Position numbers and translations under genes: made by a program. Below are positions 3,475 to 24,000 of a DNA stretch of 24,000 nucleotides, in pieces. Under the pieces are notes generated by a model. The model did not search any database. It saw nothing but the letters and a program-made list of their open reading frames with translations, and was not told the origin of the DNA. Each line of letters begins with the position of its first letter. Positions within the stretch are counted from its first letter, which is position 1. The DNA is taken from the NCBI GenBank assembly GCA_946478305.1, contig CAMLBO010000005.1:1-24000 (forward strand), read 5' to 3'. The stretch comes from an uncultured Enterobacterales bacterium (GTDB lineage: Bacteria > Pseudomonadota > Gammaproteobacteria > Enterobacterales > Enterobacteriaceae).

Positions 3475-5013
<1,539 letters not shown>

Positions 5014-5035
5014 TTATTTTTATAAGTGCAATGCT

Positions 5036-8601
<3,566 letters not shown>

Positions 8602-9912: not shown

Positions 9913-13415
<3,503 letters not shown>

Positions 13416-13495: not shown

Positions 13496-13517
13496 CGCCC
13501 TTCGGGGCGGTTTTTTT
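13496..13517 (+). terminator. Second plus-strand rho-independent terminator (tandem with the previous one)
   Basis: cgccc ttcg gggcg g ttttttt: a GC stem with a TTCG tetraloop and a 7-T run. The T-run overlaps the stop codon of the minus-strand gene (13516-13518). Confidence 0.65.
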
Positions 13518-14775
13518 AGCTATTTACCTTCCGCCCTAACCCCCAGCAAACTATCGCCGCGACAATCAGTGACGGTATCGTCGCGCCGACGTCCGGCAGG
13601 AAGTTCGCCATTGCCTGATACACCGCAATACCGATAACCCACGCGGCAAGCGACCGTCCGTTGAGGTCGCGGGTGGTCTGCTGGCGCAATACAAAATGAT
13701 GCGTCAGCACCACGCCGAACAGTGGCGCAAAGACAGAACCAATCAACAGCAGGAAGTTTTCGTACTGCGTGAGCGGAACGCGCCAGGCGATCAGCGTACA
13801 CAGCAGACCAATGCCCAGCGTCAGTTTGCCAATACCGACCGGTAATGACGTACCAGCAGATACCGCCGCCGAGTGAATATCGGCAAAAGCGTTCTCGTGT
13901 TCATCCACCAAAATCAATAACAGCGGAATACCCAGCGCCACGCCGGACAGCGCAAGCAATAGCGCATTGGCATCGGTTGACGTGCTGACAAACGCCAGCG
14001 TATAAGCCACGCCGAGCGACATCATCCACACGCTGCCGAGGAAAAATCCGCAGGCCGTCCCCCAGAAGTTTTGCCGGGCAGATTTGCCAAAACGAGTGTA
14101 ATCGGACACCAGCGGCAACCACGAGAAGGCCATCGACACCACGATGTCACAGGCCATGGCGAATGGCATCGAGCCGTCACCTGCTTTGCGCCATAAGGCC
14201 ATGAGGTCGGCATGGCGGAACAGATAAACCGTGAGCCATGCGCAACTCGCCAGCAGCAGCCAAATTCCCCAGCGCCGTAATACCACGCGGATAAACGCCA
14301 GCGGGCCACTGGCTGCCAGCAACGTAGCCACTGCGCCAAAAACAAAAGTCCACAGCGTCGGGCTGGCCCACAAACTGTCAGTGCCCCACGCCCGCTGCGC
14401 CAGCAAACTGGCCGCATCGCGCATCACCACAATTTCGAATGCGCCCCAGCCGACCAGTTGAATCAGGTTAAACAGCACCGGCAGCGCCACGCCGCGTTTG
14501 CCGAGGCTCAGTTTCAGCGACGCCATCGACGACATACCCGTCTGCCCGCCAATCACGCCAACCAGCGCCAGCAGCGCGACACCCACTGCCGTTCCCAGTA
14601 AAATCGCGGTAATTGACCCTGCCAGCCCCAGACCCGGAGCCAAAATCGCCCCCGCCTGCAATACCATCAGGCCCATGCCGAGCGAGAACCACAGCGAGAA
14701 TAAATCCGACCAGCCGAGTACCCGCGATGCTGCGGGGATCGACGCTTGAGGTGAGTAAATACTATTATCTTTCAT
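13516..14775 (-). CDS. NCS1-family permease (purine-cytosine permease CodB / CytX-like)
   Basis: A 419-aa, 12-TM-type protein, the same length as E. coli CodB. The segment SDYTRFGKSARQNFWGTACGFFLGSVWMMSLG parallels CodB ADFVRFGRNAKLAVLVAMVAFFLGNSLMFIFG as recalled. It is GC-rich, which produces many spurious overlapping ORFs. The SD is weak. Confidence 0.7.
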   Translation of the reverse strand: MKDNSIYSPQASIPAASRVLGWSDLFSLWFSLGMGLMVLQAGAILAPGLGLAGSITAILLGTAVGVALLALVGVIGGQTGMSSMASLKLSLGKRGVALPVLFNLIQLVGWGAFEIVVMRDAASLLAQRAWGTDSLWASPTLWTFVFGAVATLLAASGPLAFIRVVLRRWGIWLLLASCAWLTVYLFRHADLMALWRKAGDGSMPFAMACDIVVSMAFSWLPLVSDYTRFGKSARQNFWGTACGFFLGSVWMMSLGVAYTLAFVSTSTDANALLLALSGVALGIPLLLILVDEHENAFADIHSAAVSAGTSLPVGIGKLTLGIGLLCTLIAWRVPLTQYENFLLLIGSVFAPLFGVVLTHHFVLRQQTTRDLNGRSLAAWVIGIAVYQAMANFLPDVGATIPSLIVAAIVCWGLGRKVNS

Positions 14776-14896
14776 GAGGTTAATTTCGTTAATGCTGCGA
14801 AGGGCTGTTATAGCATATCTGTACGCGATTCTGATGATGTGGGGGCGGGAAGCGCACTTTTCGGTGTTGAATGAGGGTTATCGGCACACGGCTATT

Positions 14897-14923
14897 TTGG
14901 CAAACAGGGGATGAGGGTAGAAT
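14897..14923 (+). promoter_or_regulatory. Candidate sigma70 promoter for the hsd operon
   Basis: TTGGCA (14897-14902), a 15-nt spacer, then TAGAAT (14918-14923), about 45 bp upstream of the hsdM ATG. The spacer is shorter than optimal. This was identified by eye only. Confidence 0.25.
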
Positions 14924-14966
14924 GCCGCCATGCTTTTTACCGACTGAAATAGAGTGGCGAACCTGA

Positions 14967-16487
14967 ATGAACGATAAAGTAAAACAAGACGATATTAACA
15001 AAGCCCTTTGGGACGCCTGCGATACCTTCCGTGGCACCATCAGCGCGGACACCTACAAAGATTTCATCCTCACCATGCTGTTTCTGAAATACATCTCCGA
15101 CGTCTGGCAGGACCATTACGACACCTACGCTAAACAGCACGGCGACTCGCCGGAGCTGATTGAAGCGCTGATGAAAAGTGAGCGTTTTGTTCTGCCGAAA
15201 GACGCCAGTTATTACGCCATTTACGCCCGCCGCCATGAAGCCAAAAACGGTGAGCGTATCGATCAGGCGCTGCACGCCATTGAAGAAGCCAACGGCACCA
15301 AACTGAAAGATGCCGGGAAAAGCGTGTTTCAGGATATCTCTTTCAACACCGATAAGCTGGGCGAAGAAAAGCAAAAAAACGGCATTCTGCGTGAACTGAT
15401 CGAGCATTTCGATAAACCTGAGCTGAACCTTAAACCGAGCCGCGTCGGCACGCTGGATGTGATCGGTAACGCTTATGAATACCTGATCAAGAAATTTGCG
15501 TCTAACGGCGGTCAGAAAGCCGGTGAGTTTTATACCCCGCCGGAAGTCTCGGATTTGATCTCTGAACTGTTAGACCCGCAGCCGGGTGACAGCATTTGCG
15601 ATCCGGCCTGTGGTTCGGCCTCGTTGCTTATCAAATGTGGTGCCCGTGTGCGCACCAATCACGGTTCGAAGCATTATGCGTTGTACGGTCAGGAAGCTAT
15701 CGGCTCCACCTGGGCGCTGGCAAAAATGAACATGTTCCTGCACGGCGAAGACAACCACAAAATCGAGTGGGGCGATACCATTCGCAACCCGAAATTGCTG
15801 GATAAAAACGGTGACCTGATGCTGTTTGATATCGTCACCGCCAACCCGCCGTTCAGCCTGGATAAGTGGGGCCACGACGATGCGGCATCTGATAAATTTG
15901 ATCGCTTCCATCGCGGTGTGCCGCCAAAAACCAAGGGCGACTATGCGTTTATCTCACATATGATCCAAACGCTAAAACCCGCCACCGGTCGCATGGGCGT
16001 GGTTGTCCCGCACGGCGTGCTGTTCCGTGGCTCCAGCGAAGGGAAAATTCGCCAGCAGCTGATCGAAGAAAACCTGCTCGATGCGGTGATCGGCCTGCCG
16101 GAAAAACTGTTTTACGGCACCGGTATTCCGGCGGCGATCCTTATCTTTAAGAAAGATAAAATCGACAACAATGTGCTGTTTATCGATGCCAGCCGGGAAT
16201 ATAAATCCGGTAAAAACCAGAACGAACTCAGCCCGGAAAATATCGCTAAAATCATCGCGACTTACCGCGAAGGCGGCAGCGTCGATAAATACGCCTATAT
16301 CGCCAGCCTGAAAGAGATTCAGGATAACGACTACAACCTGAATATCCCGCGCTATGTCGATACCTTCGAAGAAGAAGATGAAATTGACTTGGTGGCGGTG
16401 CGCGAAGAACGTCTGGCGTTAACGGCGCAGCTGGATGCGCTGGAAGTGGAAATGGCGGGCTATCTCAAGGAGCTGGGTTATGAGTAA
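14967..16487 (+). CDS. hsdM: Type I restriction-modification system, N6-adenine DNA methyltransferase subunit
   Basis: 506 aa. It has an HsdM N-terminal helical domain (LWDACDTFRGTISADTYKDFILTMLFLKYISD), AdoMet motif I DPACGSASLL, and catalytic motif IV TANPPFSL. Confidence 0.93.
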   Translation: MNDKVKQDDINKALWDACDTFRGTISADTYKDFILTMLFLKYISDVWQDHYDTYAKQHGDSPELIEALMKSERFVLPKDASYYAIYARRHEAKNGERIDQALHAIEEANGTKLKDAGKSVFQDISFNTDKLGEEKQKNGILRELIEHFDKPELNLKPSRVGTLDVIGNAYEYLIKKFASNGGQKAGEFYTPPEVSDLISELLDPQPGDSICDPACGSASLLIKCGARVRTNHGSKHYALYGQEAIGSTWALAKMNMFLHGEDNHKIEWGDTIRNPKLLDKNGDLMLFDIVTANPPFSLDKWGHDDAASDKFDRFHRGVPPKTKGDYAFISHMIQTLKPATGRMGVVVPHGVLFRGSSEGKIRQQLIEENLLDAVIGLPEKLFYGTGIPAAILIFKKDKIDNNVLFIDASREYKSGKNQNELSPENIAKIIATYREGGSVDKYAYIASLKEIQDNDYNLNIPRYVDTFEEEDEIDLVAVREERLALTAQLDALEVEMAGYLKELGYE

Positions 16488-17685
16488 GGTTCCGGCGGGT
16501 TGGTATGAAGACGTTTTTGGTAATGTTATGTCATTCAAAAATGGGCTTAACTTTACCAAGTCCGCTTTAGGTGAAACTATAAAAATAGTTGGTGTTGGTG
16601 ACTTTAAAGACTATTCAGAGTTGCGTAATACTCAATGTCTTGAGTTTATACAGGTCGCAAATAAGATCCGTGATGAAGAGTTACTAAAGGACGGAGACTT
16701 GTTGTTTGTTCGCTCAAATGGCAATAAAAATCTCATTGGACGTTGTCTATTTTTTCCTTTTGTCAAAGAACGTCTTTCATTTTCTGGTTTTACTATCCGT
16801 GGTCGAGTCGATAGTAAGAAAATCCTTCCTGAATATGCTTCATATCTTTCAAGGTCATCGTTGGTCAAAGAGCAAATTAATCAGAATGGCGGTGGAACTA
16901 ATATTTCTAATTTGAGCCAACAGATTTTAAATGACATTGAGTTTCTGCGGCCCCCACTCCCAGAACAAACCAAAATCGCCCAAATCCTCTCCACCTGGGA
17001 TAAGGCGATTGCGACCACTGAACAACTAATTAGCAACAGCCAGCAGCAGAAAAAAGCGCTGATGCAGAGTTTATTGACGGGAAAGAAACGGTTACCGGGG
17101 TTTGAGGGGGAGTGGGTAGTTCAGCCTTTAGATAATTGGATAGAAGAATATAAAAAGAAATCATCTGAAAATGATCAGTATGAAGTATTAACCTCTTCAA
17201 GGAATGGTCTTGTCCTACAAAGTGATTACTTTGAAAATAATAGAATCTCATCGCGTGAGAATATAGGGTTTAATATTATACCTGAAGGTTATGTTACTTA
17301 TCGCTCCAGAAGCGATGACGGACGATTTACTTTCAATATTAATAAGTTAGGTTTCACTGGGCTCATCAGTATATATTACCCCGTATTTTATTTTCCAAAT
17401 GGTAGTCTGGAATTTTTCATTAATATGCTTAGCTTCAATGAGCGTCTGTTTGAGGCTCATAGTGTAGGAACATCTCAAAAAGTTCTTTCGATTAATGCGT
17501 TGAAGTTAATGAGATTTAAAATTCCCCCACTCCCAGAACAGCAAAAAATCGCCGCCGTACTCACCGCTGCCGATAACGAAATCGAACTGCTGCAAAAGAA
17601 ACTGTCCTTTCTAAAACAGGAAAAAACCGCATTAATGCAGCAATTGCTGACCGGTAAGCGCCGGGTGAAGGTGGAGGCAGCCTGA
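16480..17685 (+). CDS. hsdS: Type I restriction-modification system, specificity subunit
   Basis: Start set to ATG 16480, with AAGGAG 7 nt upstream; it overlaps hsdM by 8 nt (ATGAGTAA). Two divergent AT-rich target-recognition domains are each followed by a conserved helical repeat (PPLPEQTKIAQILSTWDKAI..ALMQSLLTGKKRL and PPLPEQQKIAAVLTAADNEI..ALMQQLLTGKRRV). Confidence 0.92.
   Translation: MSKVPAGWYEDVFGNVMSFKNGLNFTKSALGETIKIVGVGDFKDYSELRNTQCLEFIQVANKIRDEELLKDGDLLFVRSNGNKNLIGRCLFFPFVKERLSFSGFTIRGRVDSKKILPEYASYLSRSSLVKEQINQNGGGTNISNLSQQILNDIEFLRPPLPEQTKIAQILSTWDKAIATTEQLISNSQQQKKALMQSLLTGKKRLPGFEGEWVVQPLDNWIEEYKKKSSENDQYEVLTSSRNGLVLQSDYFENNRISSRENIGFNIIPEGYVTYRSRSDDGRFTFNINKLGFTGLISIYYPVFYFPNGSLEFFINMLSFNERLFEAHSVGTSQKVLSINALKLMRFKIPPLPEQQKIAAVLTAADNEIELLQKKLSFLKQEKTALMQQLLTGKRRVKVEAA
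16951..16967 (+). repeat. 17-bp direct repeat, copy 1, at the start of the hsdS central conserved region
   Basis: cccccactcccagaaca is identical to 17524-17540. It encodes PPLPEQ at the TRD1/conserved-region boundary. Confidence 0.9.
17524..17540 (+). repeat. 17-bp direct repeat, copy 2, at the start of the hsdS distal conserved region
   Basis: cccccactcccagaaca is identical to 16951-16967, 573 bp downstream of copy 1. It is followed by a shared aaaatcgcc. Confidence 0.9.
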
Positions 17686-18713
17686 TGGATGAGAAGAATT
17701 TGCCGTTAGCACCTGAAGGTGAGTTTGTGCTGTTTCAAAGCGCGGACGATCGCGTACAGGTGGAATGCCGCTTTGAGTCGGAGACGCTGTGGCTTTCACA
17801 GGCGATGATTTGTGACTTGTACGGTAAAGCCAAGGCCACCATCAGCGAGCATATCAGCCATATTTTTGCTGAGCATGAACTGGAAGAGAATTCAGTTGTT
17901 CGGTTTTACCGAACAACTGCGGCTGATGGAAAAGCCTATAATGTTCAGTATTTTAGCCTGCCGTTAATTCTGGCTGTCGGTTACCGTGTCCGTTCCGCTC
18001 GCGGCACCCAGTTCCGCCAGTGGGCAACGCAAACCTTGCAGGAATATGTCATTAAAGGGTTTGTGATGGACGACCAGCGGCTGAAAAATCCGCCGGTTGG
18101 GCAGTCGGTGGTGCCGGATTATTTCGACGAGATGCTGGAACGCATCCGCGATATTCGCGCCAGCGAACGCCGGGTGTATCTGCGGATTAAAGATATTTTT
18201 GCCATGGCGGCGGATTATCAGCCATCGGATAAAGACACTGCCCGTTTCTTTCAGGCAATTCAGAACAAACTGCATTACGCCTGTACCGGTCTGACGGCGG
18301 CGGAAATTATTGCTCAGCGTGCGGACGCCAGCCAGCCGGATATGGGGCTGACCAGTTTCAAATATGATAACGTGCGTAAAACCGATATCACCATTGCCAA
18401 AAATTATCTGCGTGAAGAAGAAATTGACCAGCTTAACCGCATTATTTCCATGTGGCTGGATTATGCCGAAGACCAGACCAAACGCCGTCAGCAAATATTC
18501 TTAAAAAGCTGGCAGGATAAGCTGGAGCAGTTTCTTAACTTTAATGAACTGGATATTTTGCAGGGTAGCGGTAAAACCAGTAAAAAAGCAGCGGATGAAA
18601 AAGCCTGCCAGCAATATGAACAATTCGCCGAACAGCGCCGCCGCCTGAAAGAAGCCGAAGGCGCCAAAAGTAATATCGAGGCGCTTCACGCCATTGCGCA
18701 GAAAAAGGACTAA
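17685..18713 (+). CDS. RhuM-family protein (COG3943-like; 'DNA-binding protein in cluster with Type I R-M system'), embedded between hsdS and hsdR
   Basis: 342 aa. Its ATG shares one base with the hsdS stop (TGATG, 17683-17687), with GGAGG 7 nt upstream. The core ..LILAVGYRVRSARGTQFRQWATQTLQEYVIKGFVMDDQRLK.. and the N-terminal HTH-like ..LWLSQAMICDLYGKAKATISEHISHIF.. match my recollection of the RhuM family. This was not verified by a search. Confidence 0.7.
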   Translation: MDEKNLPLAPEGEFVLFQSADDRVQVECRFESETLWLSQAMICDLYGKAKATISEHISHIFAEHELEENSVVRFYRTTAADGKAYNVQYFSLPLILAVGYRVRSARGTQFRQWATQTLQEYVIKGFVMDDQRLKNPPVGQSVVPDYFDEMLERIRDIRASERRVYLRIKDIFAMAADYQPSDKDTARFFQAIQNKLHYACTGLTAAEIIAQRADASQPDMGLTSFKYDNVRKTDITIAKNYLREEEIDQLNRIISMWLDYAEDQTKRRQQIFLKSWQDKLEQFLNFNELDILQGSGKTSKKAADEKACQQYEQFAEQRRRLKEAEGAKSNIEALHAIAQKKD

Positions 18714-18716
18714 CGG

Positions 18717-21700
18717 ATGTCACAGCCTGAACCACACCCCCTGCCAAAGTTTGAAGAAGAGTACATCGCCAAATTACCGGCGCTGACGCTGATGACCCAC
18801 ATGGGCTGGACGTTTCTTTCCCCCGCTCAGGCGCTGGCGGCACGCGGCGGCAAGCTGGATCAGGTGGTATTGCGTGATGAACTGCACCGGATGCTGAAAA
18901 CCCGCCGTTTTCATTACGCGGGCAAAGTGTATCCGCTGTCTGAAAAATCCATTGAAAATATCATTAGCGAAGTATGCAGCCCGGCCCTGAATGAAGGATT
19001 GATGTCGGCTAATCAGCGGATGCACAACCATTTGCTGTACGGCATCACGGTGACCGAGTTTGTCGATGGGCGTAAATCCAGCCAGACCGTCGAACTGGTC
19101 GACTGGAAAAATATCGCCAACAACAGCTTTTTGGTCACCGAAGAGTTTCGCGTGACCCGCACCGGCGGCATTGGCTCATCGCATTATGATTGCCGCAAAC
19201 CGGATATCGTCGGTTTTGTGAATGGCATTCCGATGGTGGTGATCGAGGCTAAACGCCCGGTCAGCCAGGGCAAAAAAGGCCCGACTATCGACGAAGGTAT
19301 TTCCCAAAACCTGCGTAATCAGATGCACGACGAAATCCCGCATCTGTTCGTCTACAGCCAGATTTTGCTCTCGATTAACGGCAGCGACGGGCGTTATGGC
19401 ACCTGCGGCACGCCGTTAAAATTTTGGGGCGGCTGGCGCGAAGAAGATATTACCGATGCTGAAATGCTGGCGGTGAAGAACAAAAGACTGAACCCGCAGC
19501 AGGTTTCCGGCTTGTTCAGCCACCGTAAGCCGGAAGATTTACACTGGTATCAGAATCTGATTGCCGGCGGCCATCTGGCGGTGACGGGACAGGATCAGAT
19601 GCTTATCAGCCTGCTGTTGCCGGCGCGCTTATTGGAGATGGTTCGCCTGTATACGCTGTTCGACAAAAAGGTTGGCCGGGTGATTGCCCGTTATCAGCAG
19701 GTGTTTGGCATCAAACGGCTCACCGATCGCATCAAGCTCAAAAACGCCCACGGCGGTCGCGAAGGAGGGGTGATTTGGCATACCACCGGTTCCGGTAAAT
19801 CGCTGACCATGGTGCTGTTCAGTAAAGCGCTGCTGCTGGATGAATCGCTGAAAGCCTGCCGTTTCATCATCGTTACCGACCGGGTGGATCTGCAAGCCCA
19901 GCTGAGTAAAAGTTTTCTGTCGGGCGATCAGCTTTCCGGTAAGCATGATTTTAAGAAAGCGATGGCCAACTCCGGTGCGCGTCTGGCGCAGCAAATTAGC
20001 CAGGGTAAACAGCGGATTATCTTCTCGCTGATCCAGAAGTTTACCTCGGCCACCGAATTACCCGAGTGCCATAACGACGATGCCAATATCGTGGTGCTGA
20101 TCGACGAAGGCCACCGCAGTCAGGGAGGCGAAAATCATATTCGCATGAAGCTGGCGCTGCCTAATGCGGCTTTCGTGGCGTTTACCGGCACGCCGCTGCT
20201 TAAAGACGATAAAACCACCAACAAATTCGGCCCGATTGTTCACGCCTATACCATGCAGCGCGCGGTGGAAGATAAAGCCGTCACGCCGCTGTTATATGAA
20301 GAGCGCAAACCCGAACTGAACGTGAATGAAAAAGCGGTCGACAGTTGGTTTGATCGTATTACTGTTGGTTTGAGCGACGCGCAGCGCGCCGACTTAAAAC
20401 GTAAATATTCCCGCAAAGGCGCAGTGCAAAGCGCCGACGATCGTATTCATTTAATCGCGCTGGACGTCGCCAATCACTTCAGTAAACACATCACCGAGGG
20501 GCTAAAAGGTCAGTTGGCCTGTGACAGCAAACTGTCTGCCATCAAATATAAAAAGTACCTCGACGAAGCGGGCTTGTTTGAGTCCGCCGTGGTGATGAGC
20601 CCGCCGGATACCCGCGAAGGCAATACCAGTATTAATGAAGCAACCCAGCCAGAAGTGTCGAAATGGTGGAAAGACAACGTTGGCAGTGAGGATGAGCGGA
20701 AATATACCCAGAAACTGATTGGGCGTTTTGAGAAAGACGAAAAGTTGAAATTGCTGATCGTGGTCGATAAGTTGTTGACCGGTTTCGATGAGCCGCTTAA
20801 TGCGGTGTTGTATATCGATAAATCCCTGAAAGGGCATAACCTCATTCAGGCCATTGCACGCGTTAACCGACTGCATGATAAGAAGAAAGAAGGCTTGCTT
20901 ATCGACTATCGCGGTGTACTGGCGGAGCTGGACACCACCATCGCCAAATATCAGGATCTGGCTTCGCGCACACAGGGCGGCTATGACATCAATGATATCG
21001 ATGGTTTATATAATCAGATGAGCAGCGAATATAAGCGCTTGCCGTTATTGCATAAAACGTTATGGGCAATCTTCGACGCGGTGCCGAATAAAAGCGATAC
21101 CGAGCAGTTGCGTCAGGCATTGGTGCCTAAAATGGAGCAGCGTAACGGCGAGTTTGTCGATATTCACCTGAAGGCACGTGAAGATTTCTACGAGGCACTG
21201 AGTGAGTTTGCCAGTTGCCTGAAAGTGGCATTGCAATCGGCGACGTTCTTCGAAGACAACAGTTTTAGTGATGCCGACCGTAAAAGTTATAAAGAGACCG
21301 TGCGCCAGCTTTCGATTTTGCGTCAGCAAATTAAAGCCGATGCCGGTGAAACGGTGGATTACGACGAATACGCCGAACAGGTGAAAAAACTGCTCGATAA
21401 ACACGTGGTCGGCGTGCAAATCAAAGAGCCTGACGCAGTGTACGACGTGTCGAAAATGGGGCAGCAGAAGCCCAAAACACCACATCCGTCGTGGTCAGAA
21501 GATAAAACCCGCAACGAAACTGACATCATTAAAACGCGTGTCACCAAAATGATTGAGCAGGAATTGCACGATGATCCTTATGCGCAGGAAGCATTCTCGG
21601 CTCTGCTACTAAAAACGATAGAGGAAGCGGAAAAACAGTTCGATCATCCTTCCAAGCAATATTTGCTTTATACCGAGTTTATGCAGGATGTTGAAAACCG

Positions 21701-22037
21701 CCGGTTGCAGGATATCCCCGATGCTTTTGGTGGTAATAAACACGCACAGGCTTATTACGGCGTTTTCAAGAAAGAGCTACCTCAGGTTTTTGCAGTGGCA
21801 GATGCTCAGGTCGAAAAGAAATGGGTGGCACTGGCGTTTGTGATTGATACTGTGGTCCACCGCGCCGTCACCGAAAACTCTATCAACACGCAAAATATTG
21901 AAGCTGAGATTCGAAAAAATCTTCTCACAATGCTGTTTCACGAGTGCAGGGACGTAGGTGCGGGTATCGATCAGGTGAATAGGATTGTCGAAAGCGTGGT
22001 GCAAATCACCCGCGTCGGCCTGAATGGTGTGTCATAA
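18717..22037 (+). CDS. hsdR: Type I restriction-modification system, restriction (endonuclease/translocase) subunit
   Basis: 1106 aa. It has a PD-(D/E)xK nuclease motif (KPDIVGFVNGIPMVVIEAKRP). SF2 helicase motifs are present: I HTTGSGKSLTM, II VLIDEGHRSQ, III FTGTPL, VI QAIARVNR. The start is 3 nt after the preceding stop, with AAGGA 7 nt upstream. Confidence 0.93.
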   Translation: MSQPEPHPLPKFEEEYIAKLPALTLMTHMGWTFLSPAQALAARGGKLDQVVLRDELHRMLKTRRFHYAGKVYPLSEKSIENIISEVCSPALNEGLMSANQRMHNHLLYGITVTEFVDGRKSSQTVELVDWKNIANNSFLVTEEFRVTRTGGIGSSHYDCRKPDIVGFVNGIPMVVIEAKRPVSQGKKGPTIDEGISQNLRNQMHDEIPHLFVYSQILLSINGSDGRYGTCGTPLKFWGGWREEDITDAEMLAVKNKRLNPQQVSGLFSHRKPEDLHWYQNLIAGGHLAVTGQDQMLISLLLPARLLEMVRLYTLFDKKVGRVIARYQQVFGIKRLTDRIKLKNAHGGREGGVIWHTTGSGKSLTMVLFSKALLLDESLKACRFIIVTDRVDLQAQLSKSFLSGDQLSGKHDFKKAMANSGARLAQQISQGKQRIIFSLIQKFTSATELPECHNDDANIVVLIDEGHRSQGGENHIRMKLALPNAAFVAFTGTPLLKDDKTTNKFGPIVHAYTMQRAVEDKAVTPLLYEERKPELNVNEKAVDSWFDRITVGLSDAQRADLKRKYSRKGAVQSADDRIHLIALDVANHFSKHITEGLKGQLACDSKLSAIKYKKYLDEAGLFESAVVMSPPDTREGNTSINEATQPEVSKWWKDNVGSEDERKYTQKLIGRFEKDEKLKLLIVVDKLLTGFDEPLNAVLYIDKSLKGHNLIQAIARVNRLHDKKKEGLLIDYRGVLAELDTTIAKYQDLASRTQGGYDINDIDGLYNQMSSEYKRLPLLHKTLWAIFDAVPNKSDTEQLRQALVPKMEQRNGEFVDIHLKAREDFYEALSEFASCLKVALQSATFFEDNSFSDADRKSYKETVRQLSILRQQIKADAGETVDYDEYAEQVKKLLDKHVVGVQIKEPDAVYDVSKMGQQKPKTPHPSWSEDKTRNETDIIKTRVTKMIEQELHDDPYAQEAFSALLLKTIEEAEKQFDHPSKQYLLYTEFMQDVENRRLQDIPDAFGGNKHAQAYYGVFKKELPQVFAVADAQVEKKWVALAFVIDTVVHRAVTENSINTQNIEAEIRKNLLTMLFHECRDVGAGIDQVNRIVESVVQITRVGLNGVS

Positions 22038-22044
22038 GGCAAAA

Positions 22045-22824
22045 ATGAGCGTACGCATCGCAATTCCGCGCCCGAAAAAACATTCGCCAGATCTCTGTTT
22101 TCACTATGGAGATGAGCGCATCTGTTTTGAGATCAGCGTCCGACGCAGTGTGAAAAGCAAGGTGCTGATCAAAGTACACCCGGATTGCAGGGTGCTGGTC
22201 GCCGCGCCTGAAAACAGTTCCGACGAAGAAGTGCTCGGTGCGGTGAAAAAACGTGGGCGCTGGATCTGGCAACAATTGCGGGATTTCCGTGCCCAGCAGC
22301 AACATATTACTGAACGACAGTACATCAGCGGTGAAAGCCACTTTTACCTCGGCAAACAGTACATGCTGAAAGTGCTGGTGGAGCCGGAGGAAAAGCAGCG
22401 GGTTAAAATGCTGCGCGGTAAATTGGAAATTACTGTGCGGGAAAGAAACCCCGAGCGTATCCGCGTGCTGCTCAATGAATGGTACAAAGACCGAGCTAAA
22501 GAAGTGTTCGCTCGCAGACTGGAGGCGATGCTGGATCAGGCATTATGGGTTAATGAGCGGCCGCCGCTGCGCGTGCAAACCATGCAAACTCAATGGGGAA
22601 GCTGTTCACCTCAGGGGCGTATTACGCTGAACCCACATCTGGTTAAGGCTCCGCGTGAAAGCATTGATTACGTCATTTTGCACGAGCTTTGCCATCTGGC
22701 GGAACACAACCACAGTGAGCAATTTTACCGGCTAATGAAGCAGGTGATGCCGCACTGGGAGAAAATCAAATCACATCTGGATGGCATAGCGGCGGCGTTG
22801 CTCAATGGCAGTCATTCGGCGTAA
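22045..22824 (+). CDS. DUF45 / YgjP-like (COG1451, SprT/WLM-like) HExxH zinc metallopeptidase
   Basis: Start set to ATG 22045, 7 nt after the hsdR stop with AAGG upstream. The track start 22024 would overlap hsdR by 14 nt. The zinc site is in VILHELCHLAEHNHSEQFYRLM. The N-terminal ..ISVRRSVKSKVLIKVHPDCRVLVAAP..VKKRGRWIWQQL.. is typical of DUF45 proteins as recalled. Confidence 0.8.
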   Translation: MSVRIAIPRPKKHSPDLCFHYGDERICFEISVRRSVKSKVLIKVHPDCRVLVAAPENSSDEEVLGAVKKRGRWIWQQLRDFRAQQQHITERQYISGESHFYLGKQYMLKVLVEPEEKQRVKMLRGKLEITVRERNPERIRVLLNEWYKDRAKEVFARRLEAMLDQALWVNERPPLRVQTMQTQWGSCSPQGRITLNPHLVKAPRESIDYVILHELCHLAEHNHSEQFYRLMKQVMPHWEKIKSHLDGIAAALLNGSHSA

Positions 22825-22853: not shown

Positions 22854-24000
22854 ATGAAAAAACAACGTGGTTTGGTGGATGACCTCGCTTTACTGGATAG
22901 CGTAGTTTTAGCCAGCTTTATTGCCTCACTGTATGGCGAATATGAACTCCTGGATACGAGAATAGAACGGCTATTGTTAAAAAACGACACCAGTGCATTA
23001 ATTAAAACGCTTAAAAAAGAGATAAAATCTCTGGGTCGATCCTCCTATTTTTACAGTTATTATCAAGCCGGTGAGTTAGCTCACAATGTATATCAATTAA
23101 AAAGTGAAATCGAAGATAATGTTTTACCTGACTTTCCCGATCAGGCATTTCAATTGGTCAATGATCTACTGGAGACTGCTGAAAATAGCCTGAACCGATG
23201 TGATGATTCTGATGGTAGCGTCGGTGATGTTTACTTGGATATTTGTTTATTATGGTTAAAATCAGCCAGCCTGAGTTCTGTGCCTGCGACAGGTTGGTTG
23301 CCGATCATTAAACAATTAGCCGATAGTAATGATTATGGCGTGCTTGATCCTTTATTACCCAACGCCAATATCCTTCTTTCGCAAGGAGAGTTACGCCAAC
23401 TGGCCGCTTATTATGAAGACGGATTACGTGCCTCGCTCAAAACGAAAAAAAGGGATGAATTCCGTGATATTAGCTGGTCAGTTAACCTCCATAGCGTGGC
23501 TGAAGCGTTAAAAGACCCGGCAATCTATATTCAGGCAACATTACTGGTCAGCCCTTCGCCAAATCATATGCAGATGGAAAGCATGGTTGAGTTTAGCCTG
23601 CATTGTGGTGCGTATGATGAGGCAATGAAATGGCTGCAAAAAGACTGGGGAGAAAGTGGCTGGAAAAAGCCCAATGCAACACGCCTGTCACTATTAGCCG
23701 ACTGCTATCAGGGGCTGAATCAGCCAGAAAAACGCCTGGCTGCGCTGATTGAGTTGATGGATATAGAACCCACGTTTGAGAATTTCCAAAAAGTGGAGCC
23801 GCTGGTTTCTGAAGATGACGTCCGTCAATTACGTGAGCAATTGATTATCGCTGTCCTCAAAGAGTCTGAACTTGATGACCAGTTAGACCCATTACTCAAA
23901 CTCAATGAATACAGCAAAGCTGAAGAGCTGGCGATAAAGGGCGTCAATGAAATCGCTGAGTGGCATTATACCCAGTTGCTTTCGTTGTTGGATGAAGTGC
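22854..24000 (+). CDS. Hypothetical protein, predicted all-alpha/TPR-like; 3' end lies outside the window (382 codons visible)
   Basis: This ORF is not in the supplied track because it has no stop codon in the window. ATG 22854 is preceded by AAGGAG (22841-22846) with 7-nt spacing. I translated it by hand and found no in-frame stop through 23999 (MKKQRGLVDDLALLDSVVLASFIASLYGEYELLDTRIERLL...HYTQLLSLLDEV). It is AT-rich compared with its neighbours. I did not recognise any family. Confidence 0.75.
   Translation, partial: MKKQRGLVDDLALLDSVVLASFIASLYGEYELLDTRIERLLLKNDTSALIKTLKKEIKSLGRSSYFYSYYQAGELAHNVYQLKSEIEDNVLPDFPDQAFQLVNDLLETAENSLNRCDDSDGSVGDVYLDICLLWLKSASLSSVPATGWLPIIKQLADSNDYGVLDPLLPNANILLSQGELRQLAAYYEDGLRASLKTKKRDEFRDISWSVNLHSVAEALKDPAIYIQATLLVSPSPNHMQMESMVEFSLHCGAYDEAMKWLQKDWGESGWKKPNATRLSLLADCYQGLNQPEKRLAALIELMDIEPTFENFQKVEPLVSEDDVRQLREQLIIAVLKESELDDQLDPLLKLNEYSKAEELAIKGVNEIAEWHYTQLLSLLDEV

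Follow-up and report, generated by a model that had tools for sequence, protein, structure and literature searches.

The stretch analysed here, referred to as the window, comprises the first 24,000 nucleotides of contig CAMLBO010000005.1 from an uncultured Enterobacterales bacterium (assembly GCA_946478305.1). It carries a Type I restriction-modification (R-M) operon that includes two genes beyond the R-M subunits, one placed between hsdS and hsdR and coding for a protein of the RhuM family, the other placed behind hsdR and coding for a YgjP-like (DUF45) metallopeptidase. The five genes are the following:

14967-16487, plus strand: hsdM, 506 aa, Type I methyltransferase subunit (Pfam, NCBIfam, PADLOC)
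16480-17685, plus strand: hsdS, 401 aa, specificity subunit with two target-recognition domains (Pfam, PADLOC)
17685-18713, plus strand: RhuM-family gene (PADLOC PDC-S05), 342 aa, the cargo of the slot between hsdS and hsdR (Pfam, PADLOC)
18717-22037, plus strand: hsdR, 1106 aa, restriction/translocase subunit (Pfam, NCBIfam, PADLOC)
22045-22824, plus strand: YgjP-like (DUF45) zinc metallopeptidase gene, 259 aa (Pfam)

No overlap or gap between these genes exceeds 8 nt: hsdM and hsdS overlap by 8 nt (ATGAGTAA at 16480-16487), the hsdS stop and the start of the RhuM gene overlap in TGATG (17683-17687), the RhuM gene and hsdR are separated by 3 nt (CGG, 18714-18716), and hsdR and the peptidase gene by 7 nt (GGCAAAA, 22038-22044). 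Shine-Dalgarno-like motifs are found 7 nt upstream of the starts of hsdS (AAGGAG), the RhuM gene (GGAGG) and hsdR (AAGGA), and 5 nt upstream of the start of the peptidase gene (AAGG). Longer alternative starts are possible for hsdS (at 16435) and for the peptidase gene (at 22024), but profile alignments and homologue lengths favour 16480 and 22045. In 20 related loci the distance from the RhuM gene to hsdR ranges from -20 to +9 nt and that from hsdR to the peptidase gene from -20 to +10 nt, and because the gaps stay tight in all of them, the packing is not a matter of chance. A consensus scan for promoter-like sites on the plus strand detected only 14576-14604 and 14739-14768, both upstream of hsdM, and none within the operon. 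This is consistent with one transcript, which such a scan cannot prove because coding sequence can contain promoters. A preliminary description, made from the DNA letters alone, had given the same five genes, and the positions of the open reading frames (ORFs) bear it out, as they do the junctions; profile searches agree with its family calls, Virulence_RhuM and DUF45. The Shine-Dalgarno motifs it listed are present at the distances given, except that hsdR has AGGA rather than GGAG, and its statement that there is no room for internal promoters was too strong as a matter of principle, even though the scan found none.

All three subunits of a Type I R-M system are present, with profile scores above the cut-offs throughout (Pfam, NCBIfam, PADLOC). 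HsdM matches N6_Mtase (5.4e-106) and HsdM_N (7.1e-22) of Pfam, MTase_I of PADLOC (3.4e-132) and the NCBIfam model TIGR00497 hsdM (273.5 bits at a cut-off of 242.75), and its translation shows the motifs NPPF and DPACGSA. Pfam Methylase_S is found in two stretches of HsdS, of which residues 4-401 are aligned with PADLOC Specificity_I (4.8e-83). In HsdR, the Pfam domains HSDR_N (1.9e-40), SWI2_SNF2 (1.2e-71) and T1R_D3-like (6.8e-24) are accompanied by matches to TIGR00348 hsdR (456 bits) and, over the full length, to PADLOC REase_I PDLC03041 (E = 0), and the translation shows a Walker A motif (GSGKS), a DEGH box and a PD...IEAK nuclease motif. As judged from their sequences, HsdM, HsdS and HsdR bear the domains and motifs expected of a working Type I enzyme. 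In a phmmer search of PDB, HsdR reached 118 bits with EcoR124I HsdR in motor-domain residues 305-535 only, and full-length similarity to HsdR of the Type IC family (EcoR124I/EcoprrI) was not found. The GC content in the hsdS region is low (0.38-0.45 at 16001-17500, against about 0.50-0.54 elsewhere in the operon), as is usual for variable target-recognition domains.

A look-up of peptidase homologues found the exact order hsdM-hsdS-RhuM-hsdR-peptidase also in Klebsiella pneumoniae and in Yersinia pseudotuberculosis, including strain IP32953, and trmE islands of Vibrio cholerae have the five-gene order with one extra Schlafen/HATPase gene in the slot. All these Yersinia, Klebsiella and Vibrio loci lie within integrase-bearing islands amid defence genes such as Mrr and GmrSD, and DUF262 genes are also among the defence neighbours of loci with this scaffold. 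The lineage was then sampled by HsdR alone, which gave 80 metagenome loci (69-91% identity) in which homologues of the five window proteins were located. The peptidase gene is found directly 3' of hsdR in 78 of these 80 loci; of the other two, one contig ends at the hsdR stop and one truly lacks the gene, which makes 78 of 79 testable loci. The slot, taken as the sequence from the hsdS stop to the hsdR start, could be defined in 63 loci (the ORF starts in loci other than the window are inferred) and has the following contents:

Empty slot (4-16 bp): 8 of 63 loci
YecA-like gene alone: 16 of 63 loci
YecA-like gene and cold-shock-domain protein: 10 of 63 loci
YecA-like gene and other genes: 2 of 63 loci
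RhuM: 10 of 63 loci (5 alone, 4 with other genes, 1 decayed fragment)
Other cargo: 17 of 63 loci

Filled slots contain one to five co-oriented genes, always on the operon strand, and the cargo falls into at least 29 sequence clusters, most of which are known or candidate anti-phage modules according to Pfam and PADLOC. The cargo includes SMODS with AGS_C and a SLATT effector (CBASS-like), SIR2 with HerA, TIR-STAND, dCTP deaminase, dGTPase, a UG5-nitrilase reverse transcriptase (DRT), Olokun OloAB, AbiD, an AbiZ-like protein, KAP NTPases, MoxR-vWA, a fused AAA_15/21-DUF4435 protein and the PADLOC candidates PDC-S12, S21, S60, M04 and M07. For the YecA-like cargo, PDC-S12, there is partial experimental support (bioRxiv 10.64898/2026.09.05.749240), and unexplained cargo includes a 620-aa cold-shock-domain protein, DUF3800 with a partner, and DUF6161. 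The flanks of the slot are conserved irrespective of the cargo, with LKQEKKALMQQLLTGKRRV at the HsdS C-terminus and PKFQEEYSAKLPALTLLTNLGW at the HsdR N-terminus. The scaffold recurs in annotated chromosomes of E. coli and on plasmids of Klebsiella and Acinetobacter. The cargo there is of the YecA family, a cold-shock-domain protein, CBASS-like, or NucS with Abi, and every time the gene behind hsdR bears the annotation 'M48 family' or 'SprT family' metallopeptidase. The HsdR lineage occurs on 513 plasmid records, 396 of which are predicted to be conjugative. It is very likely that these loci share a scaffold-plus-cargo architecture, namely a fixed hsdM-hsdS-[cargo]-hsdR-peptidase arrangement that belongs to a widespread and horizontally mobile Type I lineage.

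Some of the related loci show further particularities. The 284-bp slot of one (L139:5613-5927) holds just a 97-aa RhuM fragment, and the cargo is apparently decaying in place. The 620-aa slot protein, which has a weak cold-shock-domain match and no PADLOC model, is encoded by the second slot gene in L144, L159, L163-L164, L169-L172, L174, L177, L181 and L184, on Klebsiella IncF conjugative plasmids as well as in E. coli. An intact YecA-like gene lies directly 5' of it except in L144, where an 89-aa fragment remains, and in L181, where it is a pseudogene, and the YecA-like and 620-aa proteins are a candidate for a defence pair that has not been recognised as such. In L181 (E. coli O145 RM12522-C8, 52-9159), hsdM, hsdS and hsdR are annotated as pseudogenes together with the YecA-like gene (internal stop or frameshifts), and the genes of the cold-shock-domain cargo and the M48 peptidase as intact. 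Directly 5' of hsdM, L083-L092, L095 and L185 have a small ORF (88-96 aa, no Pfam match) and a half-length hsdS-like gene (~190-210 aa). These could be a regulator of the RptR type and an extra specificity domain, and the window has neither of them.

How the genes diverge was assessed by identity to the window proteins in the 21 loci that have all four proteins compared. Within the scaffold, Spearman coefficients are 0.93 for HsdM-HsdR, 0.84 for HsdR-peptidase and 0.77 for HsdM-peptidase, and the parallel divergence of peptidase and HsdR holds to as low as about 50% identity; for RhuM the coefficients are 0.31 with HsdR and 0.19 with the peptidase. RhuM diverges independently of the scaffold. 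The peptidase, as it follows hsdR in 78 of 80 loci and co-diverges with HsdM and HsdR, is a core gene of the HsdR lineage. In one metagenome contig (Ga0308171_1004920; RhuM at 4131-5153), HsdM, HsdR and the peptidase are 97%, 88% and 92% identical to those of the window and RhuM only 47%; by sequence, the slot has apparently been refilled there with a different RhuM allele.

The RhuM protein matches Pfam Virulence_RhuM (PF13310) at 3.8e-108 (361 bits at a cut-off of 33.7, profile 1-250 of 252) and, over its full length, the hidden Markov model PDC-S05 of PADLOC at 6.6e-158 (523 bits, residues 8-340), and it has every residue that is invariant among 109 homologues. No RhuM family was found in NCBIfam or PHROGs, and no sequence relative in PDB. 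In the AlphaFold2 model (predicted local distance difference test, pLDDT, of 76.6) there is an N-terminal strand-plus-helix domain and a well predicted, all-helical C-terminal domain, the latter with many invariant polar residues (DIRxSE, QNK, AKNY). The N-terminal half resembles the DNA-binding domains of phage Bro-N, KilA-N and Ant, and this Bro-N/winged-helix-like domain probably binds DNA. The only PDB matches of the model at E < 0.01 were to the Deinococcus DNA-break sensor DdrC (E = 5e-4), a weak lead that was not accepted as the RhuM fold, with template modelling (TM) scores of just 0.22-0.34; the DdrC-type match lends support to DNA binding by RhuM and to nothing further. Although N-termini of COG3943 are fused to Doc in some proteins, RhuM was rejected as a Fic/Doc-like toxin, there being no Fic/Doc motif in the alignment and no such structural match, and it was rejected as a HEPN protein, since inspection of the conserved residues by eye revealed no Rx4-6H motif. 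Inside the RhuM gene, at 17893-17919, two perfectly inverted 12-bp arms enclose a loop of 3 nt (CAGTTGTTCGGT AAA ACCGAACAACTG), and a terminator scan called this repeat on the minus strand.

Most relatives of this RhuM live apart from Type I systems. Its 80 closest homologues, taken from one genome per species, have 62-81% identity to it; 15 of them share the scaffold order, 8 are near a different Type I system, and around the other 57 no Type I gene was detected within 10 kb, a number in which very divergent Type I genes could have been missed because detection was by phmmer with the window's own proteins (E < 1e-5); distant HsdM and HsdR were still detected, with scores of 45-130, in eight RhuM loci. 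Several solitary copies adjoin core genes, for example prlC/rsmJ or yicI/yicJ. In Rahnella victoriana (L002, 8018-11038), a permease gene with 81% DNA identity to that of the window is followed by a solitary RhuM gene (79% identity at the protein level), without hsdM, hsdS, hsdR and the peptidase gene; judging by the shared permease flank, RhuM alone thus occupies in that species the chromosomal site that has the full operon here. The molecular function of RhuM was called unknown as late as 2020 (PMC7449626), and RhuM is enriched beside invertible (phase-variable) hsdS genes with an odds ratio of 14 (PMC9881135). The PDC set of PADLOC goes back to 'guilt-by-embedding', applied to operons of BREX, DISARM and Type I R-M (bioRxiv 10.1101/2024.01.29.577857), and a PDC-S05 gene cloned alone in E. 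coli B lowered the plating of T7 and T5 by ~1000-fold and that of T4 by ~10-fold (bioRxiv 10.1101/2024.09.26.614923). It is likely that the RhuM gene of the window is an independent anti-phage defence gene.

The peptidase matches Pfam YgjP-like (PF01863) at 1.5e-57 (195 bits at a cut-off of 26, profile 3-205 of 207), and its mean column identity is 71%. The motifs HELCHxAExNH and QWGSCSP are invariant in 121 homologues, as are the zinc-site residues H213, E214, H217, E220 and H223. Other Pfam matches are partial, to SprT-like (34.5 bits, cut-off 25.6, profile 18-96 of 108) and, around HExxH only, to WLM (29.8 bits, cut-off 26, profile 79-119 of 190), and the Peptidase_M48 profile was not matched (Pfam at E <= 0.001; none in NCBIfam). 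The labels 'M48 family' and 'SprT family' come from genome annotations, and kinship with M48 exists at the fold level only, via the minigluzincins: in Foldseek the C-terminal half matches selecase, jannalysin and abylysin with a probability of 1.0 and TM scores of 0.45-0.58, and the best PDB sequence match is proabylysin (1.9e-5). Weak structural matches were also obtained to IrrE/PprI, BlaR1 and Spartan (E = 2.7 for the latter). With the minigluzincins (selecase, projannalysin, proabylysin) the window peptidase has the HExxH zincin core in common, but it differs from these and the other structures in an additional conserved N-terminal part of ~165 residues, for which no structural match was found. 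No PADLOC model matches the peptidase, PHROGs gave only a weak match to a PHROG of unknown function, and a literature search on DUF45 and restriction returned nothing on the peptidase, the text matches being mostly to DUF450 or DUF4xxx.

In Type IA and IB systems, HsdR is degraded in a ClpXP-dependent manner when the system enters a new host or when DNA has been damaged, and host DNA that lacks the modification is thereby spared. By analogy, the peptidase may be a protease for the control of HsdR that acts on HsdR itself or on the assembled complex, which is offered tentatively, HsdR being an inferred substrate. In a more specific form of this idea, which is somewhat more doubtful, it would be a dedicated operon-encoded protease that cleaves HsdR, perhaps while HsdR is stalled or translocating on unmodified host DNA, and this mobile Type I lineage would thereby have its own means, independent of the host and replacing ClpXP, of alleviating restriction and of controlling its establishment. 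ClpXP would be a functional analogue and not a homologue, since it is a host AAA+ serine protease encoded elsewhere, in contrast to the zinc peptidase encoded in the operon here.

Overall, the locus is best explained, with a probability of about 0.7, as a fixed mobile scaffold with an exchangeable cargo and a constant peptidase. RhuM would be an autonomous second-line anti-phage protein and neither a subunit nor a regulator of the restriction complex, and by its co-transcription with the R-M genes both layers of defence would be expressed and transferred together. The cargo would be exchanged by homologous recombination between the conserved 3' end of hsdS and the conserved 5' end of hsdR. The peptidase would act on the restriction subunit or complex as a self-encoded equivalent of ClpXP-dependent HsdR degradation, and such a restraint in cis would suit an element that repeatedly enters naive, unmodified hosts on plasmids and islands.

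A closely similar arrangement has been described for the RRDM island of enteropathogenic E. coli (EPEC) E2348/69, which has the order RptR-HsdM-HsdS-DarT/DarG-HsdR-M48 metallopeptidase (PMC12255303, NAR 2025). A comparison of the gene orders shows that in both cases hsdS and hsdR enclose the cargo, and that hsdR is followed straight away by a peptidase gene of the M48/YgjP type. The EPEC island protects against phages, and its hsdS/hsdR site has been termed a potential recombination hotspot for defence systems (PMC12255303). Unlike in the window, the EPEC cargo is DarTG2 and not RhuM, and the island has rptR and TAGCTA operators, whereas neither a small rptR-like plus-strand ORF nor a TAGCTA palindrome was found upstream of hsdM in 14776-14966. 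In V. cholerae, TgvAB of VPI-2 is likewise an embedded cargo, with an anti-phage activity of its own that is independent of the HsdR nuclease (PMC11411939). This cargo, however, is a two-gene GmrSD-like Type IV system, and neither 'peptidase' nor 'protease' occurs in the text of PMC11411939.

Several points weigh against the explanation by scaffold, cargo and constant peptidase. The coupling of RhuM to hsdS and hsdR is tight and conserved, which would also fit a functional interaction, and the whole Type I-TgvAB cluster of V. cholerae protected 10- to 100-fold better than the cargo alone (PMC11411939), a point in favour of an integrated system. The PDC-S05 protein that has been assayed is of cold-seep metagenome origin and outside this clade. 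The counts from the HsdR sample are not independent events because the metagenome contigs are partly redundant, with many from gut E. coli and Klebsiella. The model of the peptidase is poor (pLDDT 67, predicted TM score 0.40), and its fold matches are limited to a catalytic core of ~100 residues. The conserved HExxH is no proof of relevant proteolysis either, because ArdC, a protein with a metalloprotease domain, counteracts HsdRMS independently of its protease site.

Of the other explanations, the one that survives best, albeit as a rather unlikely one, concerns the peptidase, which could be a defence effector or serve in counter-counter-defence, either by cleaving Ocr, ArdA or Stp, or as a toxic protease in abortive infection upon failed restriction. 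The strict link to hsdR and the intact zincin site would fit such a role, as would the weak structural likeness to the signal-triggered regulatory proteases IrrE/PprI and BlaR1 and the fact that in many genomes the locus has defence genes as neighbours, Mrr, GmrSD and DUF262 among them. However, the peptidase has no PADLOC match and no report as a stand-alone defence gene, and one would expect a module of this kind to pass from system to system like the cargo, yet the peptidase co-diverges with HsdR and HsdM.

It is improbable that RhuM and the peptidase are dedicated accessories of one integrated composite system, in which RhuM might, for example, be a PrrC-like guard that the R-M complex keeps inactive and that is released when phages inhibit restriction, while the peptidase would activate it or act as its effector. 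The precedent for a guard at this very position is PrrC of EcoprrI, the classic layered defence, in which there is likewise an extra, co-expressed gene between hsdS and hsdR; the tight junctions in 20 loci and the exact five-gene order in several genera can be cited in addition. PrrC, which the R-M complex keeps masked, is an ABC-ATPase/HEPN-type tRNA (anticodon) nuclease, and RhuM is unrelated to it in sequence. Moreover, EcoprrI is a Type IC system, whereas the window HsdR is not a close Type IC relative, and no peptidase gene is mentioned for EcoprrI (prrABCD) in the descriptions consulted. With PrrC-like guards, RhuM has the embedding between hsdS and hsdR in common but not the near-exclusive embedding of the family: PrrC is hardly ever found other than embedded in a Type I system (Payne et al., bioRxiv 10.1101/2024.01.29.577857), whereas RhuM is mostly solitary, with 57 of the 80 closest homologues lacking a Type I system within 10 kb, and was active alone in the one published test, in which PDC-S05 protected when cloned by itself. 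Also, RhuM divergence is uncoupled from the scaffold, and the two accessories do not co-vary, the peptidase being present whatever the cargo and even with an empty slot.

It is still less probable that RhuM has no part in defence and hitch-hikes in the operon as a DNA-binding regulator, an antirepressor-like mobile-element factor or a virulence factor, RhuM having first been named in Salmonella pathogenicity island 3 (SPI-3). The likeness of its N-terminal half to phage Bro-N, KilA-N, Ant and 'repressor domain' proteins and to winged-helix regulators would agree with this, and so would the solitary copies at island/core boundaries, the phenotypes of SPI-3 rhuM mutants and the location of RhuM next to mobI in trmE islands (cited in PMC7449626). 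Against it stand the plaque assays with a PDC-S05 protein (bioRxiv 10.1101/2024.09.26.614923), the enrichment beside phase-variable hsdS (PMC9881135, odds ratio 14), the filling of the same slot almost wholly with defence modules, and the lack of a PHROG match, by which RhuM is not a typical phage gene. The least probable is that the peptidase is a passive passenger, a housekeeping hydrolase unrelated to restriction. DUF45/YgjP genes do also occur as solitary chromosomal genes (e.g. a partial E. coli match annotated 'YgjP-like metallopeptidase domain-containing protein'), and YgjP of E. coli K-12 has been annotated as a weak UTP pyrophosphatase, but the gene of this scaffold is present in 78 of 79 testable loci, lies at -20 to +10 nt from hsdR and co-diverges with HsdR to about 50% identity, and the mean column identity is 71%.

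The explanation by a scaffold with exchangeable cargo changes the picture that the preliminary description had drawn of a composite defence system with two accessories. It was right to link both accessory families with Type I R-M genes of other genomes, the five-gene order does recur in several genera and in 15 of 80 RhuM genomes, and a layered defence locus is plausible, but the accessories are not co-varying parts of one machine. In the neighbourhood analysis it had proposed, they do not behave as a pair, the peptidase being constant (78 of 80) and RhuM one of at least 29 alternative cargo clusters; the linkage of RhuM with the peptidase is sporadic, whereas that of the peptidase with hsdR is conserved. 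That neither family has a demonstrated role is outdated in the case of RhuM in view of the phage protection by PDC-S05 (bioRxiv 10.1101/2024.09.26.614923), and the function it called undescribed has, as regards the architecture, been covered by guilt-by-embedding (bioRxiv 10.1101/2024.01.29.577857) and the EPEC scaffold (PMC12255303). In place of two co-dependent accessories there is one core accessory and one interchangeable, named and once-tested cargo gene.

Three features adjoin the operon:

13516-14775, minus strand: cytosine/purine-type permease gene, divergent from hsdM
14776-14966: intergenic region 5' of hsdM, presumed promoter region of the operon and boundary between core chromosome and inserted defence locus
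22854-24000, plus strand: DUF6880 ORF, the sixth co-oriented one, at least 382 aa, continuing past the window edge (Pfam 2.4e-10)

Upstream of 14.8 kb there is ordinary core metabolism (Mqo, LacZ/LacI, YgjK glucosidase, permeases), and the operon therefore opens an inserted island; no tRNA gene that would mark the insertion site was found. The DUF6880 ORF begins with an ATG at 22854, 29 nt past the peptidase stop and with AAAGGAG 7 nt upstream, and because it follows co-oriented behind this motif, a count of five genes may be too low. It has no PADLOC match, and a homologue at the same position (72% identity) occurs only in Budvicia aquatica (L001:8564-9700). The DUF6880 gene is an island neighbour outside the conserved scaffold and is possibly co-transcribed with the operon. 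Farther upstream, at 9934-11016 on the plus strand, a 360-aa ORF without a Pfam match at E <= 1e-5 lies between the genes of a LacI-type regulator and the YgjK glucosidase and runs at its end into the beginning of the ygjK-like ORF.

Most of what is described here on the architecture and on the RhuM family has already been published, and the locus itself is a further copy of a common mobile defence operon, with a cargo that has already been named and given a phenotype. The HsdR lineage is a clean natural cassette holder, and a census of its slot would be a cheap source of new defence candidates. The remaining interest lies in the peptidase, the only gene that is as constant as the restriction enzyme itself. 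If it is true that the peptidase regulates HsdR, one would understand how a Type I system on a plasmid or island spares each new host, and a self-encoded proteolytic control would be added to the known modes of R-M regulation.

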